The notes: generated by a model not told the origin, from the letters alone. A stretch of DNA of 64,000 nt from a phage (GCA_004257845.1 GCA_004257845.1_4800.1); one strand, 5' to 3'. Positions 1 through 60,822 are shown, numbered from the stretch's first letter. Translations and numbers: made by a program.

Positions 1-102
1 AAAAAAAATGGCCAGAAAAACTGGCCGAAAGATCACCCTTTATCCACTACTAAGCTGGAATCATAATTTTACTTGATATAGCTTGTACAAGCAAACTATA
101 AT

Positions 103-1563
103 ATGAATAAAATATTAACACATAATTGGAAATTCATGTACCAGTTGAATCCTGCTTTAAAAGAAGTCTGGAAGACAAAAGCGCGATACAAAGTAATATA
201 CGGCGGTCGTGCATCTTCCAAATCGCATGATGCCGCTGGTTTTGCTATTTATTTGGCGGCAAACTTCAAATTAAAATTCCTTTGCGTTCGACAATTCCAG
301 AACAAGATTTCTGAATCTGTATATACTCTATTAAAAGACAAAATAGAGATTTCTGATTTCAAAGATGAGTTCAATTTATTAAAGAACTCTATTGAACATA
401 AAAGAACTAAATCTGAATTTCTATTTTACGGTATCGCACGTAACGTTGATGAAATCAAATCAACGGAAGGTGTTGACGTCCTTTGGCTGGAAGAGGCGCA
501 CGCGCTTACTGAAGAACAGTGGGACATTATTGAGCCGACAATACGTAAAGAAGGGTCCGAAATATGGATCATCTTTAACCCTGATGAAGAGGCCGATTTC
601 GTCTATCAAAACTTTGTCATGCGACCGCCGAAGAATGCCATTGTCAAAAAGATAAACTGGCAAGACAATCCATTCTTGTCGCAAACAATGCTGGACGTTA
701 TTGCAGGTATGTACGAGCGTGACCCGAAAAAGGCAGAGCACGTTTATGGCGGCGTGCCGAAGACTGGCGGCGATAAATCTGTAATCAACCGCGCATTCGT
801 TAAGGCCGCGCTTAACCTCCACAAACACCCTACGCTGGGGTGGAGTTTGTCAGGGTCTAACCGTATAGGCTTTGACGTAGCGGACGATGGCGACGACCTT
901 AACGCCACTGCATTCGTTACAGGAAACGTATTGCGCGGCATCAAGACATGGGAAGGTCTGGAAGATGAATTGTTGAAATCGGCAAGCGGAGTTTGGAAAG
1001 ATGCGCTTACATTTGGCGCTTCTATAACTTATGACGCCATCGGTGTCGGCGCTTTTGCTGGTTCAAAATTTGATGAACTGAACGAGTATGCAATACATGA
1101 AAATCCATCATTTCCAAGAATCGAATTTAATGCGTTCAATGCGCAAGGGTCTGTTGATGATCCTGATGACGTTTTTCTTGAATTACCACACGTTGAAATA
1201 CTCAATAAAGACCATTTCGCAAACATAAAAGCGCAAAAGTGGACTGAAATTGCAGAGAGATTCAGAAAGACATACGAATATGCAACTGGGCAAGCCGTAT
1301 ATCCGACTGACGAATTGATTTCAATCGACACCGATGGTATACCGGAACTTGGGATTCCAGCTTGGACTACTGAAGAGATTGAGACGTTTCTTTTTGAGAT
1401 GTCAGCGCCGCGCAAAGATACGTCTGTTCTTGGCAAGTTCAAAGTTGAATCCAAAAAGGATATGGCAAAGCGTGGAGTTAAATCACCTAACAAAGCGGAC
1501 GCAGCAATCATGGCATTGATGAAACCAATCGTTGCAGCATCCGGCTTCTTCTCTAACCTTTAA
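103..1563 (+). CDS. terL: terminase large subunit
   Basis: 486 aa; N-terminal ATPase-like motifs (GGRASSKS Walker A-like, LWLEEAH Walker B-like), Asp-rich C-terminal half; sits upstream of portal. True start could be the internal Met at 136. Confidence 0.75.
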   Translation: MNKILTHNWKFMYQLNPALKEVWKTKARYKVIYGGRASSKSHDAAGFAIYLAANFKLKFLCVRQFQNKISESVYTLLKDKIEISDFKDEFNLLKNSIEHKRTKSEFLFYGIARNVDEIKSTEGVDVLWLEEAHALTEEQWDIIEPTIRKEGSEIWIIFNPDEEADFVYQNFVMRPPKNAIVKKINWQDNPFLSQTMLDVIAGMYERDPKKAEHVYGGVPKTGGDKSVINRAFVKAALNLHKHPTLGWSLSGSNRIGFDVADDGDDLNATAFVTGNVLRGIKTWEGLEDELLKSASGVWKDALTFGASITYDAIGVGAFAGSKFDELNEYAIHENPSFPRIEFNAFNAQGSVDDPDDVFLELPHVEILNKDHFANIKAQKWTEIAERFRKTYEYATGQAVYPTDELISIDTDGIPELGIPAWTTEEIETFLFEMSAPRKDTSVLGKFKVESKKDMAKRGVKSPNKADAAIMALMKPIVAASGFFSNL

Positions 1564-1566
1564 CAA

Positions 1567-1806
1567 TCAAAGCATTCCGTGCTGAAGGTCGAGTTTTCTT
1601 GCAGCAAATGACCTGGCACGGAATCGCTTACCCGCTCTTACTGCCTGCCGAATCTTCTTCTGCATACACTTACGGTCAAAATCGTTGCGGTCAACGGCTT
1701 CGAGTAAATCCCGACGCAAAGCACCTAGTGTCGCCTTTTCGGATACTTCTATGCCCAGCGCGGCTGCAACATCTTTCAAAACATCGAGTTCGGTTAACGT
1801 TCTCAT
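1567..1806 (-). CDS. hypothetical small protein (79 aa), basic helical C-terminus
   Basis: Minus-strand ORF with start overlapping stop of upstream gene (ATGA at 1803-1806); no recognisable motif. Confidence 0.45.
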   Translation of the reverse strand: MRTLTELDVLKDVAAALGIEVSEKATLGALRRDLLEAVDRNDFDRKCMQKKIRQAVRAGKRFRARSFAARKLDLQHGML

Positions 1807-2219
1807 TTGATAATCCCCTTGATGTCTGATTCTGCCATAAAGATTGGAGTGCCGCCGCCAGGAACAATCGAGCGCGTTACTTTGTCAAACATATCGTTTT
1901 CTTCAACTTGAATACGATAAAATTTATTTTTGGATGAAGATGGGCACAATCCCATAAATTTACCAATGCCGCGAACGCATTCATCTTCAAAGTATACCGT
2001 TTCACCTTGAATGGATTCGATGTTTTCAACCGGATATACCTTGCGACTTAAAAGCCATTCATCCATGGTCGCCTGCAACACGTTTCGTGCATCCAAAATC
2101 CAAGGGTCAACTGTGGCACCTTCATATCGCGCAGCAGTGGCTTTTGCCAGCTCTTCATATTCGCATACGTTTACTACTTCGCCTTGATGAAGGACGACAA
2201 ATACAATTGTTGTGCTCAT
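1803..2219 (-). CDS. hypothetical protein (138 aa), first gene of minus-strand moron
   Basis: ORF preceded on minus strand by strong RBS (AAAGGAGATTGAA-ATG) and AT-rich promoter region; no recognisable motif. Confidence 0.5.
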   Translation of the reverse strand: MSTTIVFVVLHQGEVVNVCEYEELAKATAARYEGATVDPWILDARNVLQATMDEWLLSRKVYPVENIESIQGETVYFEDECVRGIGKFMGLCPSSSKNKFYRIQVEENDMFDKVTRSIVPGGGTPIFMAESDIKGIIK

Positions 2220-2224
2220 TTCAA

Positions 2225-2345
2225 TCTCCTTTCGTTTGGTTAACTAAAATATAACTCAAAATGATACAAAAGCAAAATATTTTATGAACTATTTATGATT
2301 ACTGTACATATCATTTGCTTACAAACACATGAATATTTATAATAT
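2225..2345. promoter_or_regulatory. AT-rich divergent promoter region (plus: TTGCTT-17-TATAAT toward portal; minus: TTGCTT-16-TATATT toward moron)
   Basis: Sigma70-like -35/-10 hexamers with correct spacing read on both strands in a 120-bp AT-rich gap between divergent genes. Confidence 0.4.
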
Positions 2346-2382
2346 AGATTGATTCCCTTTCACTGTCAGGTGGCGTTAACAA

Positions 2383-4757
2383 TGAAAATTCTTGGCATAA
2401 AACTCTGGGAGAAGACGCAACCAGAAGCCGAACCAGCGGAGATGCCGCCAGGCGACCCATTGGCACCGTTTGAACGCCTTGAAAGGCGCGGCAGCGGTCA
2501 ACGCTGGGAAAGGACTGAAAGCAATCGACCGACCTTTAAAACGGTTGATGACTTCCCTTTATATGAGCCTGATATTAACGGGGACGGTGTTGCAATCATC
2601 AAAGGTCGCTCAGTAGATTCAGCAACCGTATCCAAAAAAGTTATGGATAATGCTTTGAAGAACATCAGTTCAGAAGGGCAGGTTAATCCATACACAGTAC
2701 CTATTCAGCTGCAAAACTGGTACTTGTCGCAGTCATTCATCGGCTATCAAGCTTGCGCAATTATCGCGCAGCATTGGCTGGTAAACAAGGCTTGCTCGAT
2801 GGTAGGTCGCGATGCAGTACGTAAAGGTTGGGAAGTAAAATCAAGTTCTGAATCAGAATTGTCTGTGCAGGCAAGTGAACGTCTAAAGCAAATTGATAAA
2901 GAATTTAATATCAAAGAGCACTTAGTTGAAGCCGAACGATTCAAAAATATTTTTGGTATCCGCGTCATCATATTTGATGTGCGTAGCGATGACCCAGAAT
3001 ACTACAGTAAACCTTTTAACATTGATGGTGTGACAAAGGGGTCTTATAAGGGGATCATTCAGGTTGACCCTTATTGGATGATGCCATTTCTGACGTCTGA
3101 AAACACCGCCGACCCTGCTTCACAGCACTTCTATGATCCAGAATACTGGGTGATCAGCGGCCAGCGTTATCATCGCAGCCACCTCATAATCTTGCGCAAC
3201 GATGAGCCAGCTGATATTCTCAAGCCGACTTATATTTACGGCGGCATTCCTCTGACTCAGCAGATTTATGAACGCATCTATGCCGCTGAACGTACCGCCA
3301 ACGAAGCGCCATTGCTGGCGATGTCCAAGCGCACAACGACGCTGCGGACCGACGTTGACAAGGCCATTGCCAATGAGCGGTCTTTTGCAGAACGTCTGAT
3401 GATGTGGATCAAGTACCGCGACAACTATGCGGTCAAAGTGCTTGGTCAGAAAGAAGAGATGGACCAGTTTGACATCAACTTGTCAGACTTCGACAGCATC
3501 ATCATGAACCAGTACCAGCTGGTGGCTGCAATCGCAAAAGTTCCGTCGACCAAACTTCTTGGGACTTCGCCAAAAGGCTTTAACGCCACTGGTGAATTTG
3601 AGATGGTCAGCTATCACGAAGAGTTGGAAACGTGCCAGCAACATGACCTGACAAAAATTCTCGACCGCCATTATAAAATCCTTCTCAAATCAGAAGGGGT
3701 GGAAGTCGACGTTAAGGTTGCATGGGAACCAGTCGGCTCACTTACTGCTACTCAACTTGCAGAAATCAACGACAAGCGAGCTAACACTGGCAAAACTCTC
3801 ATTGATGCTGGCGTCATTTCTCCTGATGAAGAGCGCGACCGCATCAAAGACGACAAAAACAGCGGCTACAACCGTCTGCCGGAAGACGCAGCAGAAGAAA
3901 CCCCAGGGATGTCTCCAGAGAATATGGCATTGCTTGGCAAGTCTGCTGGTGAAGTCCTGCAAGGTAAGGCCGATATTGAACAGGCGAAAGCTGATGTCGT
4001 TAAGATGGGCGGCCAGTTCTATAGCGAAACAGGTATCATGCCAGAAGGTGCCGCGCGTGGTGAGTTGGCGGAAAACCCTGACAGAGCGCCTGTCGAAATC
4101 AACATGGACGATACCGATGATGAATCAAGCCATCAGGTTGATGTCCTAACGCAGTTGAAAGAAGGTCTGGAGGGTATTTCTGATTACTACCTAAAAGAAG
4201 GTCAGGATGTGGATTTTGACCCTCAAAAAGATTCACGGTCGGTGCAACCGTCTACCCTTCCAAGCGTTAAAGGACACGTCGTCAACTTACGCCACAACGT
4301 GGGTAAAATGGACGAAGCAGCATTACCTAAGATGAAGTTGCACGGAATGATTCTTGGCATTGAGAATCCGCGCAACAGCATTCGTAGAGGAAACAGCCTT
4401 GACGGTGAATGGGCTGTGAAGATGCCGCACCATTACGGATTCATCAAGGGCACCAAGGGTGCGGACGGCGATGAAGTCGACTGCTTTGTGGGTCCAAATC
4501 TGAAGTCGCCGAAAGTCTTTATCGTGAACCAAAACGATAACTACTCTGGCGAGTTTGATGAACACAAGTGCATGCTTGGATTCGATTCAGCAGAAGAAGC
4601 GAAAGAAGCTTATCAAGCATCATTTGGGAACGGCTGGAACGGATTCGACTCAATCCACGAATTGGATGTGAACTCATTCAAGGAGTGGTTGAAGGGTGAC
4701 TGCTCTCAAGCATACGGAGCACTCAATAATCCTACTAATTCACCGAAGCAAGGTTGA
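2383..4757 (+). CDS. portal protein with C-terminal inorganic-pyrophosphatase-like domain
   Basis: Long ORF after terminase with portal-like N-terminal ~470 aa; acidic linker; C-terminal ~160 aa contains HYGFI and DGDEVDC, matching the family I pyrophosphatase signature D-[SGDN]-D-[PE]-[LIVMF]-D-[LIVMGAC]. Start set at ATG 2383 (RBS AGGTGG) rather than TTG 2349. Confidence 0.6.
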
Positions 4758-4758
4758 T

Positions 4759-5610
4759 ATGGCTTTTAAAGCTTCGAAAAAACGTGAACGCCGCTCACCC
4801 GATAGAATCGGGCGCGGCAGTCCGATAATCCCATCAAACGCTATTGCGATGGCCTACCGTCGTGAGATGAAAGGTCTTTGCTATGCGATGATTGATGACT
4901 ATCAGGCAGGAATTTCAGAGTGGCTTGAAAAGAAGCAGGTGCAGAAGTTCTTTGCGCAAGACTCTGCTGATTCAACATTCCAAACTCTTATGAAACGTCT
5001 GCAGCTGAAATGGGCAAAGGCGTTTGCTCGTGTTGGGTCGAAGATTGCCGCTGATTTTATCAAGTCGGTTGAAAAGGGCGCTACTTCTGCTACATTTGCA
5101 AGTCTTAAGTCCGCAGGCATAGAAGCGCCAAAGGCCACATATAACAAATTCGTTGAGAACACTCTTAGAACAAGCGAGACGTTCAACACGACTCTAGTGA
5201 CTAAGGTTGGCGAGGATATTCACAACAGAGTGTACGAAGCAGTCATGCTTTCGCTGACTTCGCCCGACCCAGCCCAGCAAGGCACGTCAGGCATTCAGGC
5301 GGCGCTGCGAAACGTAAAACACTTCTCTGCAAAGAGAGTCGACTTAATCGCTAAAGACCAGACAAGCAAATTGTATTGCGTTCTAAGCGATGAAAGGATG
5401 CGACAGAATGGAGTTGAAGAATTTGAATGGTCGCACTCAGGAGCAGGGAAGGAGCCGCGAATCTCTCATGAACATGTCGACGGAATGAGATTCAAACTTG
5501 ATGACAAGCGTCTATGGGAAGTGGGCGGAGAGTTGAAGTTCAAAAAGGGTGACATCGGCCCTCCTGGATGGGCGATACGCTGCAAGTGCAGAAAAATACC
5601 AATCATTTGA
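4759..5610 (+). CDS. head morphogenesis protein (MuF / SPP1 gp7-like)
   Basis: Position immediately after portal; size and sequence character typical of MuF-like minor head proteins; start at ATG 4759 abutting portal stop. Confidence 0.45.
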   Translation: MAFKASKKRERRSPDRIGRGSPIIPSNAIAMAYRREMKGLCYAMIDDYQAGISEWLEKKQVQKFFAQDSADSTFQTLMKRLQLKWAKAFARVGSKIAADFIKSVEKGATSATFASLKSAGIEAPKATYNKFVENTLRTSETFNTTLVTKVGEDIHNRVYEAVMLSLTSPDPAQQGTSGIQAALRNVKHFSAKRVDLIAKDQTSKLYCVLSDERMRQNGVEEFEWSHSGAGKEPRISHEHVDGMRFKLDDKRLWEVGGELKFKKGDIGPPGWAIRCKCRKIPII

Positions 5611-5617
5611 GGTCATT

Positions 5618-6538
5618 ATGACGATACCAATCAGCACGTTTCCTCTATCTGGACAAACGCCAGTATTACCTGCTGTATATGCGAACGGTTTGGCGATTGT
5701 TTCAGAATTTACATCCGATAAAAATTTGATTGTTCCATTGAGTCCGCCATTGGCATCTGGATACAATTCAGTCGGACAATTCTTTATGATTGGCAATGAT
5801 GGCGATTCGACCAGCAAGCCTAATCTGACATTGTCTGTACCTAAGATGGACATCACAGATGTTCAAACTGGCTTGACTGCATCAACAATCACCATTGCTT
5901 TTGGAGAAGCGGTGATTATAGGAATGGAGTCTGGAGGGTCCAAGAATGCTGTCGCCGTTAAGGTAGTCAAATCCAGCGACAACCAATACACGTTACCAGC
6001 TGCGACGGCTTCCGTTCTCGGCGGCGTCAAAATAGGAAGCGGAATAAGCGTCGCAGGTGACGGTACAATTAGCGTTACTCAATACTCATTGCCGATTGCG
6101 TCAGCATCTACTTTAGGCGGCGTAAAGGTCGGTACAACTCTATCAATTGATGGTTCCGGTGTGCTTAACGCAGCGGAAAGCACCGTCCAGAATGCCATGA
6201 ACAGTGTTAGCAATCCTCCAACCACTTTGGTTAATCTGGCAACCTTAAACCTTCCTGCAGGAAAGTGGCTTGTGACGGCAAGTCAGTTGACTGTCGCGAC
6301 AGCAGGAATTCAAGCGAATACCGGAATTACAGCCAAATTGTCAACAAGCGATTCAGATATTACGGATGATGCATTTACGATGTCAGCTGGCATTCGGGCT
6401 GCAGGTCGTTTCGGCGGCAATATTCCAACAAAGATAATTACTCTTGCCGCGCCTGGCAACGTGTATCTAAACTATCAATGCACAGATGCGTTGACATCTA
6501 CCGTTTACGGACAGATCACCGCAATTAAGCTGAACTAA
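5618..6538 (+). CDS. virion protein with fiber-like repeats
   Basis: Repeated ...AS(V/T)LGGVK(I/V)G... blocks (three copies) resembling phage fiber repeat units; start at ATG 5618. Confidence 0.4.
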   Translation: MTIPISTFPLSGQTPVLPAVYANGLAIVSEFTSDKNLIVPLSPPLASGYNSVGQFFMIGNDGDSTSKPNLTLSVPKMDITDVQTGLTASTITIAFGEAVIIGMESGGSKNAVAVKVVKSSDNQYTLPAATASVLGGVKIGSGISVAGDGTISVTQYSLPIASASTLGGVKVGTTLSIDGSGVLNAAESTVQNAMNSVSNPPTTLVNLATLNLPAGKWLVTASQLTVATAGIQANTGITAKLSTSDSDITDDAFTMSAGIRAAGRFGGNIPTKIITLAAPGNVYLNYQCTDALTSTVYGQITAIKLN

Positions 6539-9154: not shown

Positions 9155-10294
9155 ATGACTCGCATTAGCCAAACACACTCTCGCCTCCCAGCGAGCAAGG
9201 TGCGCCCTTTTGATATGCAATCCGTTACCGACGCGGCTGTTTCCCAGCTTGCTCGTATCGGTATTGTGTTTGATTCCGCGATTGTGCGTGATCAGATTGA
9301 GCACTTAAACCGTGCAGGCGCTTTCCGCGTAGGTGATGCCGCGTTTACTGCGCCGCAGACCACTCCGTCAATCCCGACCCCGTTGCAGTTCCTGCAGCAG
9401 TGGTTGCCTGGCTTCGTCAAAATCATGACCGCCGCTCGTAAAATCGACGAGCTGGTTGGTATTGATACCGTTGGTCAGTGGGAAGATGCAGAAATCGTTC
9501 AGGGTATCGTTGAACCAGCTGGCACCGCAGTTGAATATGGTGATTTCACCTCTATTCCTCTGGCAAGCTGGAACGTAAACTTTGAACGTCGTTCTATCGT
9601 TCGTGGCGAAATGGGCATGGCAGTTGGTATGCTGGAAGAAGGCCGCGCGTCTGCGATGCGTCTGAACTCCGCAGAAACCAAGCGCCAGCAGGCTGCTGTA
9701 TCTCTGGAAATCATGCGTAACGCAATCGGCTTCTATGGCTGGTACAACGGGAACAACCGTACATTCGGCTTCCTGAATGATCCAAATCTGCCAGCGGCGA
9801 TGACTTCCAACACCACTTCCGGCTGGGCTACTGCGACCTTCCAACAGGTGACTGCAGACATCCGTTTGATGGTTCGTCAAATTCGTGTGAACTCTCAGGA
9901 CCAGATTGATCCAGAGAAGGTTGACATGACTCTGGCACTGCCGACCAACTCTATCGATTGGCTGTCCAACACCACTGACTTCGGTATTTCTGTACGTGAC
10001 TGGATCACCCAGACTTATCCGAAGATGAAGATCAAGTCTGCACCGGAACTCAACGGCGCACTTGGCAGCGACCCGACTTTCTTGAACGTGGCATACCTGT
10101 ACGCTGATCACATCGATTCCTCAATCGATGGTTCAAGCGATGATGGTTCCGTATTCAGTCAGCTGGTTCAGACCAAGTTCATGACTCTGGGCGTTGAAAA
10201 GCGTGCTAAGAGCTACGTCGAAGACTACGCAAACGCAACAGCAGGCGTTCTGCTCAAGCGTCCTTTCGCAGTCGTCCGTATGACTGGTATTTAA
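9155..10294 (+). CDS. major capsid protein
   Basis: 379-aa ORF in canonical position after scaffold-like and decoration-like genes; RBS AGGCAGGTGA. Confidence 0.5.
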
Positions 10295-59522: not shown

Positions 59523-60822
59523 ATTTGCACTATGATTTGTGTACGTTTATAGCCATAATGAACATCAATCTGCACTTGAATATAATGTCCATCCATTGTA
59601 TAATTCACACTATTAATTTGCACTATGGGATTTTGCACTATGAGTCAAGATTATGTAGCGATGCCTGAAGACTTTGAAGACCCGCGATTCGCAGAGCACA
59701 ATCAGGCTTTATTCGATGAGTTCATTGACCTTGTTATTCAGGGCCATGACATGCGCGCAGCTTTTGCACTAGTATTTGGAATGGAAGTTGCAACGGATAA
59801 CTACACTGGCCAGCGAATCCTTTGCGCACAACGCAATCCGTACTACAAAATGCGCTTCAAAAAGCGTATGGAAGAGATGCCACTCAAGGATTTGTGGAGC
59901 GTAAAAGGTGCAATTCACAATTTGGTCAAGCTTGTGCGTGATCCAGAAGTCGCGGCGTCAGCCAAGCTTAATGCTATTCGTGAACTGAATATCATCTACG
60001 GCATCACGATGATTGATGAAAACGGCAATAGTAAAATGGGCCGTTCCATGGACGATTTCTACAAGGATTTTGGAGAGGCAGCCAAAGAAGGTGAGCAATT
60101 CTCCCGCCACTAGCCAATTTGCACTATAAAACGGCCCTAGAACACATTTTCTCCACTTCTAGGGCCATCGGTAATACGACGGGGAAGGTTACAACCGTAA
60201 ACGCGTTAGAAAGTGTATTATTATAAGTCATCTTTTAGTCACTTTACGTAACAATTTACGACCTTCAACCGTCCAATCGAACGACTCCACCAGCAGATTT
60301 GCACTATAACCTAAGACGATGCGCCCTTTCTCGTTATCGACCCGCCAACAAGTCTCGAATAGCATTCGATTTGCACTATTAACTATTGCCGCAACTCGCG
60401 TAGGATAAGCGCAATTTGCACTATGGTCGTAAAGGGATAAGGTGCGACCACTTCCGATGGACAACGTAGCGATGAGAATGAGTGTATTCATAAGCCACCA
60501 ATTTGCACTATGAAAAGCGACCCCGAAGGGCCGCCATTCGATTAGATAATCTGGAAGGTGTAGGACTTGTTGCCGAACTCGAAGTTTAAGCGTCCAGCTT
60601 CCTTAAGCTTCATGCGGAAGCGAATGTGCTTGCTATCCGGTAAGCCCAGCGCGGCGAACGCTACGCGGACCGATTTGAACTCGCCTACACCCTCGACCAT
60701 GACACCGTTACGGGTAAGACGCTTTTGCGCCACTTCCTTATTATCCCAACTTTTTGCAATACCTTCGCTATTCGAACGGCGATGGGATGGAGTTCCATTT
60801 TGCACTACGCAATTTGCACTAT
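59523..60822 (+). promoter_or_regulatory. array of at least nine copies of the motif (A/T)ATTTGCACTAT, all in one orientation
   Basis: Copies read at about 59524, 59616, 59631, 60113, 60297, 60368, 60413, 60500, 60796 and 60808; variant AATTTGCAGTACACT at about 63205 and 63297. Confidence 0.55.
59640..60113 (+). CDS. hypothetical protein (157 aa; small-terminase or regulator candidate)
   Basis: ORF preceded by iteron element B and by two motif copies overlapping its start codons; helical, acidic N-terminus. Confidence 0.4.
   Translation: MSQDYVAMPEDFEDPRFAEHNQALFDEFIDLVIQGHDMRAAFALVFGMEVATDNYTGQRILCAQRNPYYKMRFKKRMEEMPLKDLWSVKGAIHNLVKLVRDPEVAASAKLNAIRELNIIYGITMIDENGNSKMGRSMDDFYKDFGEAAKEGEQFSRH

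Follow-up and report, generated by a model that had tools for sequence, protein, structure and literature searches.

Two small minus-strand genes lie between the terminase (TerL) and portal genes of the 64,000-nt stretch of phage DNA that was analysed here (hereafter the window). We consider it moderately probable that they are the minimal survivor of an ancestral, leftward-transcribed cassette of non-structural genes and that they serve host takeover or regulation, not assembly. The two genes are ordinary conserved hypothetical phage genes and do not constitute a new type of system. The first of them adds a new member to a phage protein family that is known but uncharacterised, and is located in an early region of a known type.

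A coupled gene pair between TerL and portal

The window is a nearly complete genome of a Wifcevirus, an E. coli phage type. Over bases 1-6000, its identity is 96% to Escherichia phage vB_EcoM_WFC (WFC) and 93-96% to 28 other Wifcevirus records. A complete Wifcevirus genome was also found as a 68.6 kb contig inside the E. coli assembly GCA_018093385.1. TerL is encoded on the plus strand (ORF 103..1563; Pfam Terminase_3, 3e-37), and its start is placed at 136 in the records of relatives. A strong sigma70-like promoter (TTGATA-18-TATAAT, 11/12) was found ahead of it within 73..136, ending at 102. The start at 136 (MYQLNP...) is more likely than the one at 103, because the ATG at 103 directly abuts the -10 element. 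The portal gene follows on the plus strand at 2382..4757 (Pfam Phage_portal_3, 5e-88), and its product matches the portal entries of E217 (gp19) and Pa193 in the PDB (8fvh/9b41, E 1e-250). The C-terminus of the portal protein (residues ~660-782) is an InPase domain (PF18823, E 4e-46). The same fusion is present in the metagenomic phages L007, L008 and L011 and in the genome from GCA_018093385.1 (L013).

The first-pass annotation had described a translationally coupled gene pair on the opposite strand in this position, and both reading frames as well as their overlap were seen. Gene A (1803..2219, minus strand) is the first gene of the leftward unit, is divergent from the portal gene and encodes 138 aa from an ATG start. 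Gene C (1567..1806, minus strand) also starts with ATG and encodes 79 aa. The plus-strand positions 1803-1806 read TCAT, that is ATGA on the minus strand, and the stop codon of gene A overlaps the start codon of gene C, which couples the two. Gene C is convergent with TerL, and the stop codons of these two genes are 3 nt apart.

Both are genuine genes, as indicated by their low dN/dS values, their annotation in all relatives and the tagging of the gene A product (see below). All 29 Wifcevirus records contain the pair, and its equivalents in vB_Eco4M-7 are gp35 (gene A) and gp34 (gene C; locus tags checked). The dN/dS values are 0.094 for gene A and 0.058 for gene C, compared to 0.009 for the 5' part of the portal gene and 0.020 for the 3' part of TerL. 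Hence, selection on the pair is purifying, yet 5 to 10 times more relaxed than on its two neighbours. The GC content over the two genes ranges from 0.40 to 0.51 and the value for the genome is ~0.46, with a published genome mean of 46.2% (PMC7048862).

Control region and transcription of the pair

Gene A and the portal gene are separated by a divergent control region of 162 nt (2220..2381) with a GC content of ~27% (0.275). It contains the Shine-Dalgarno sequence AAGGAG (2231..2226, minus strand) six nt ahead of the gene A ATG at 2219, which corroborates the strong ribosome-binding site and the AT-rich gap noted in the first-pass annotation. The divergent sigma70-like promoters that had been proposed along with them fared less uniformly. 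Candidate hexamers occur in both directions. A promoter scan detected a candidate leftward promoter CTGACA-17-TATATT (2369..2341, minus strand, 10/12), while a second leftward candidate, TTGCTT-16-TATATT (-35 at 2275..2270, -10 at 2253..2248, minus strand), and a rightward candidate for the portal gene, TTGCTT-17-TATAAT (-35 at 2315..2320, -10 at 2338..2343, plus strand), were read by eye. The number of promoters found by the scan was at chance level, with 3 compared to 2.2 +/- 1.4 in shuffled sequences. The gap itself is 98.7% identical across nine Wifcevirus genomes, whereas the third codon positions of genes A and C are only 82% identical. It is this excess of conservation over that of third positions, rather than the scan count, that supports a control region, and a divergent promoter region ahead of the pair is probable. 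A search for repeats in the control region revealed nothing beyond short AT-rich palindromes, and Rfam detected no RNA family within 1..3000.

No terminator-like site was found in 1400..2500 and thus none at the junction of gene C and TerL. The first intrinsic terminator downstream of the leftward unit is located 1.5 kb beyond the pair at 10..26 on the minus strand, just past the 5' end of TerL and its promoter. It consists of GGCCAGTTTTTCTGGCC followed by T8 and forms a GGCCAG-TTTTT-CTGGCC hairpin. A counterpart is annotated in WFC at 9249-9267, and L007 has a terminator of conserved sequence at the corresponding position (9601-9618). The 138/79 pair comprises the only minus-strand genes upstream of this terminator, which implies antisense read-through of the whole of TerL. 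The transcripts of genes A and C would accordingly cross TerL in antisense and end at 26..10. Such read-through is not universal in the group, because in E217 the gp06/TerL junction itself carries a hairpin terminator.

This arrangement brings up a different explanation, in which the unit regulates in cis or acts on phage transcription. Leftward transcription that collides with TerL and runs in antisense to it would hold back the packaging enzyme until the promoter is shut off, and protein A and/or protein C could act on the 162-nt control region or on RNA polymerase. The two convergent stop codons without a terminator between them, the location of the sole downstream minus-strand terminator beyond TerL, its conservation in L007 and the overlap of the final cassette gene with the TerL stop codon in seven relatives are all in line with this explanation, and so are the strong conservation of the control region compared to silent sites and the promoter-proximal position that gene A always takes where it is present. 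Furthermore, residues 84-109 of protein A weakly resemble the RNAP-binding CarD/TRCF RID Tudor-like domain (Pfam E 0.12), and gp12 of phage 14-1, which is encoded in the homologous block, binds RNAP (PMC10914365). However, the CarD match is far under the Pfam threshold and an acidic protein such as A (pI 4.7) is untypical for a DNA-binding regulator. The E217 hairpin argues against read-through as a group-wide feature, and the strong purifying selection indicates that the proteins matter and not transcription alone. We regard a mainly regulatory unit of this kind as unlikely.

Reduction of an ancestral cassette

For the favoured explanation, a reduced cassette of non-structural genes, the region between TerL and portal was compared with that of related phages. 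In every PB1-like relative examined, a rightward TerL is followed by a minus-strand cassette and a rightward portal gene. The cassette proteins were assigned to six families by BLAST clustering and HMM searches: family A (the 138-aa proteins), family B (a lipoprotein trypsin-like serine protease), family C (the 79-aa proteins), family D (~103 aa), family E (~180 aa) and family F (DUF2786/DUF7168). The Wifcevirus cassette, with two genes in the order A-C, is the smallest version. The closest relative outside the Wifceviruses, L007, has the order A-protease-C-DUF2786 and a protein A that is 56% identical to that of the window. L010, L008, L011 and the Kylevirus Kyle carry A-protease-C and two to four further genes, the last of which encodes DUF2786, while the protease has shrunk to a 45-aa remnant in L009. 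Altogether, the cassettes comprise four to seven genes in the five metagenomic phages (L007-L011), five in Kyle, seven in the Myosmarvirus WR01, four in the Carpasinavirus XcP1 and 13 in the Pbunaviruses E217 and 14-1, in which an A homologue stands at the head.

Families B, D, E and F were not detected by BLAST or HMM searches anywhere in the Wifcevirus genome. Together with the larger cassettes of the relatives, this identifies the two-gene state as the end point of deletion. Genes A and C are separated by the protease gene in five lineages and by its 45-aa remnant in a sixth (L009). In the relatives, gene A is ATGA-coupled to gene B, which in turn overlaps gene C; judged from these overlaps, the loss of gene B left gene A directly coupled to gene C in Wifcevirus. 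Gene A is portal-proximal wherever it is present, and in seven relatives the cassette ends in a gene that overlaps the TerL stop codon. Family C occurs in all enterobacterial relatives sampled, with homologues in seven further lineages. However, neither gene is a universal core gene, because HMM searches did not detect family A in the cassettes of Myosmarvirus and Carpasinavirus, although these share TerL and portal, and family C was not detected in Pbunavirus by BLAST and HMM searches.

The protease between A and C in the relatives contains the lipobox LAGC (6411..7019 in L007 and 6414..6959 in L002), and a secreted phage protease inside an early cassette is unusual. In the 45-aa remnant of L009 (3250..3387), only the signal peptide and the C-terminus are left. 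Across genera, no gene of the cassette between TerL and portal is more widely conserved than that encoding DUF2786/DUF7168, which was found in E217 (gp10), Kyle (gp024), WR01, XcP1 and L007-L011.

Within the Wifceviruses, the contig from GCA_018093385.1 has the 138-aa gene alone (6001..6417) swapped for a divergent allele, and the exchange is gene-precise. Compared to the window, this allele has a dS of 1.01 and a dN of 0.105, while the dS of the adjacent 79-aa gene is 0.09, and the flanking gene C, control region, TerL and portal gene are 95-98% identical. The swapped allele is still under purifying selection, and such a precise exchange fits a gene under host-driven turnover. A further variant was observed in a Logan contig of 17.9 kb (P0008), where a 156-aa version of the 138-aa protein is frameshifted and its C-terminal half lies in another frame, which points to a sequencing error or a pseudogene.

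These comparisons bear directly on the first-pass annotation, which had read the pair as a moron inserted between the structural genes, with its own promoter and possibly an anti-defence, exclusion or toxin-antitoxin-like function. We consider such a recent acquisition very improbable. The pair is an opposite-strand unit with a probable promoter of its own, it occupies a site that is plastic across the family (2 to 13 genes), and the divergence of the swapped A allele (dS 1.0 versus 0.09) fits host-driven turnover of this gene. Nevertheless, its occurrence is not sporadic, since no Wifcevirus record (29 of 29) lacks it and Kylevirus, Pbunavirus and the metagenomic relatives carry syntenic homologues. 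Its base composition does not deviate from that of the genome (0.40-0.51 versus 0.46), and while a plausible promoter lies in the conserved gap, there is no terminator belonging to the unit and the nearest one lies 1.5 kb away (26..10). Moreover, the Wifcevirus state was derived by deletion: two genes are left of an ancestral cassette of 4 to 13 genes, which represents loss and not gain. Family A is also small: among 1.84 billion representative proteins searched exhaustively with HMMER, only four members beyond Wifcevirus were retrieved, and the four contigs examined were all from phages. With regard to a toxin-antitoxin-like function, the acidic protein followed by a basic-tailed one from overlapping genes superficially resembles a type II layout, but Pfam, PADLOC, NCBIfam, PDB and fold searches revealed no known toxin or antitoxin family, and no PADLOC, NCBIfam or Pfam match pointed to an anti-defence function. 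In addition, A and C are not an obligate pair, because the protease gene separates them in most relatives.

Sequence and predicted structure of the two proteins

By profile comparison, protein A belongs to PHROG 5124 (hmmscan E 2e-4, residues 4-99 of 138). Kyle gp028 matches the same PHROG with the same E value (2e-4), and E217 gp18, which corresponds to 14-1 ORF16, matches it at 1e-88. With a profile of the combined family, the proteins of E217, HTN3 and Epa7 were recovered at 1e-21 to 1e-31, and a pairwise BLAST of protein A with E217 gp18 gave 1.6e-6 (small database). Word-indexed homology searches returned near-identical Wifcevirus proteins only. All lineages have an acidic protein A (pI 4.5-5.0). 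The AlphaFold2 model of protein A, a confident one built from an alignment of 15 sequences (pLDDT 88.7, pTM 0.78), has two parts, a beta-beta-alpha-beta unit at the N-terminus (residues 4-42) and an SH3-like barrel at the C-terminus (residues 59-137). A fold search of BFVD with this model recovered only its own family.

Protein C is composed of an acidic helical head (residues 1-46), a single invariant cysteine (Cys47) and a strongly basic tail with a net charge of +9. Across family C, the net charge of the tail ranges from +5 to +10 and an aromatic-Arg motif is conserved. The AF2 model contains four helices (pLDDT 75), and a fold search detected no structural neighbour (best E 4). A link of protein C to E217 gp12, suggested by BLAST (E 0.004 in a tiny database, 17% identity), was not accepted, as the two differ in their PHROGs: E217 gp12 is a member of PHROG 4784, while the weak match of protein C is to PHROG 2130.

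Pfam, NCBIfam and PADLOC assigned no significant family to either protein, and the sub-threshold Pfam noise (WGR, CarD_TRCF_RID and Ubiquitin_TPR1) contained no functional family.

Absence from virion data sets

The first-pass annotation would have been contradicted by homologues that are conserved virion assembly factors in related phages. Searching the PDB sequences with the family A and C profiles resulted in no match, with the E217 and Pa193 virion entries in the library. Likewise, the mass-spectrometry lists published for vB_Eco4M-7 and ECML-117 (PMC7048862 Tables 1-2) contain neither gp34 and gp35 nor their ECML-117 equivalents. These lists include several non-structural proteins and miss some true virion proteins and TerL (PMC7048862). 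No virion match was therefore found among PDB chains or mass-spectrometry data, which is evidence of a negative kind. Their absence from the virion and lysate lists and from PDB chains, together with the lack of family A in Myosmarvirus and Carpasinavirus, favours the accessory nature implied by the earlier reading, and genes A and C are most likely non-structural and accessory.

Tagging of the 138-aa product has been reported for vB_Eco4M-7 (PMC11074155), and the genome with HiBiT-tagged gp35 yielded 336 plaques compared to 332 for the untagged genome (PMC11074155 Table 1). A protein A that is non-toxic and tolerates a tag could equally be dispensable or have a subtle role in assembly.

A small terminase was found elsewhere in the window, at 59625..60113 on the plus strand. 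The encoded protein (162 aa) is a homologue of E217 TerS (PDB 7UXE, E 6e-34), otherwise matches only PHROG 4783, which is listed as "unknown function", and is encoded ~58 kb away from TerL. In E217, TerS has been experimentally defined (PDB 7UXE) and its gene is likewise located ~58 kb from TerL (PMC9611059). Protein A or C as TerS was consequently rejected, given this homologue of 7UXE and the lack of PDB matches for families A and C.

It may be speculated that the two proteins help in morphogenesis or packaging without becoming part of the virion, for example as a prohead or portal chaperone or as a terminase accessory protein, and that their genes were kept beside TerL and portal as those of partners. 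The conservation of the position between TerL and portal across several genera would fit such helpers, their absence from mass-spectrometry and PDB data is compatible with them, as assembly chaperones are typically not found in virions, and the basic tail of protein C could bind DNA. We nevertheless consider this role quite improbable. The small terminase is encoded at 59625..60113 (PMC9611059), Myosmarvirus and Carpasinavirus have TerL and portal but no family A, and Pbunavirus manages without family C. Moreover, the pair is on the opposite strand with its own promoter, the block elsewhere encodes a secreted lipoprotein protease, an RNAP inhibitor and a YfiN-binding peptide (PMC8085984), and omega is 5 to 10 times above that of the structural neighbours.

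Proposed role of the pair and its implications

In the favoured explanation, the pair descends from an ancestral leftward cassette that PB1-like myoviruses (Lindbergviridae and allies) all carry between their rightward TerL and portal genes. The host sigma70 RNA polymerase would start in the conserved back-to-back promoter region (2248..2369) beside the portal gene and transcribe gene A first and gene C next, with translation of the second gene via the ATGA coupling, and the transcript would probably run on in antisense through TerL to the terminator at 26..10. By analogy to the Pbunavirus block, the unit would be expressed early in infection. Both products would work within the infected cell and outside the virion. 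Judged from the models, the acidic two-domain protein A with its SH3-like barrel would most likely bind a host or phage protein, while protein C, with its acidic helical head and a tail rich in Arg, Lys and aromatic residues, would most likely bind nucleic acid or an acidic partner. Jointly, the two may serve host takeover or regulation rather than assembly.

A more far-reaching possibility, to which we assign a low probability, is that genes A and C form a minimal module, not characterised before, by which PB1-like phages take over the host or counter its defences. If so, the acidic SH3-like protein A would neutralise a protein of the host, with RNA polymerase and immunity sensors as possible targets, the basic-tailed protein C would bind nucleic acid, and read-through from the operon would in addition restrain TerL in antisense. 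An arms race would, on this view, have left its mark in the swapped A allele (dS 1.0 versus 0.09).

Phage therapy and biocontrol are potential applications of Wifceviruses and Pbunaviruses, whose early, host-directed genes are almost entirely uncharacterised. Wifceviruses have also been reported to be unusually fast replicators (PMC11990801). From an evolutionary point of view, the two genes can be framed as the irreducible core of a shrinking early cassette that is common to several genera. They also offer a small and tractable target, as a synthetic-genome system and a phage with tagged gp35 exist (PMC11074155).

Comparison with known systems

With the morons of lambdoid and HK97-type phages, the pair shares the character of a small opposite-strand unit with a probable promoter of its own in the morphogenesis region. 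It differs from them in that it is not sporadic, is ordinary in composition, lacks its own terminator and is ancestral and not acquired. The similarity of protein A to the SH3-like small beta-barrels (Sm/LSm, Tudor, KOW, PsaE and YaeO/Rof) is at the level of the fold only, with 8-16% identity and none of the family-specific motifs, and protein A has an extra N-terminal beta-beta-alpha-beta unit.

The members of PHROG 5124 (14-1 ORF16, E217 gp18 and the PB1 homologue) have a length of 133-148 aa and acidity in common with protein A. They also share the motifs IVFVV, D-x-W-V-L-D, G-D-x-V-x-F-x-D-E-x-x-R-G-x-G and D-I-x-G, and are always encoded by the first gene divergent from portal (window, WFC, Kyle, E217, 14-1 and L007-L013). 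The identity to the Pbunavirus members is only ~26%, however, and no member has an assigned function. Furthermore, the A homologue is followed directly by the 79-aa gene in Wifcevirus, but by 12 other genes in Pbunavirus.

The Pbunavirus block is described in the literature as a host-directed "early genome region" (PMC8085984, PMC10914365), and it contains the genes for 14-1 gp12, a transcription inhibitor that binds RNAP-alpha, and gp11 YIP, a YfiN-binding peptide (PMC8085984, PMC10914365). This region (14-1 ORF6-16) has the same architecture of TerL, leftward cassette and portal as the window, with the A homologue at the head. It comprises 13 genes compared to two in Wifcevirus, which has neither gp12 nor YIP nor the DUF2786 gene, and E217 has a terminator at the TerL junction, whereas the window has none. 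The Kylevirus-type cassette (gp028-gp024 of the Pantoea phage Kyle and the metagenomic relatives) contains a protease gene between A and C and one to four additional genes ending with DUF2786/DUF7168, none of which is present in Wifcevirus, but it carries A and C in the same order and orientation as the window, with gene A likewise ATGA-coupled to the next gene.
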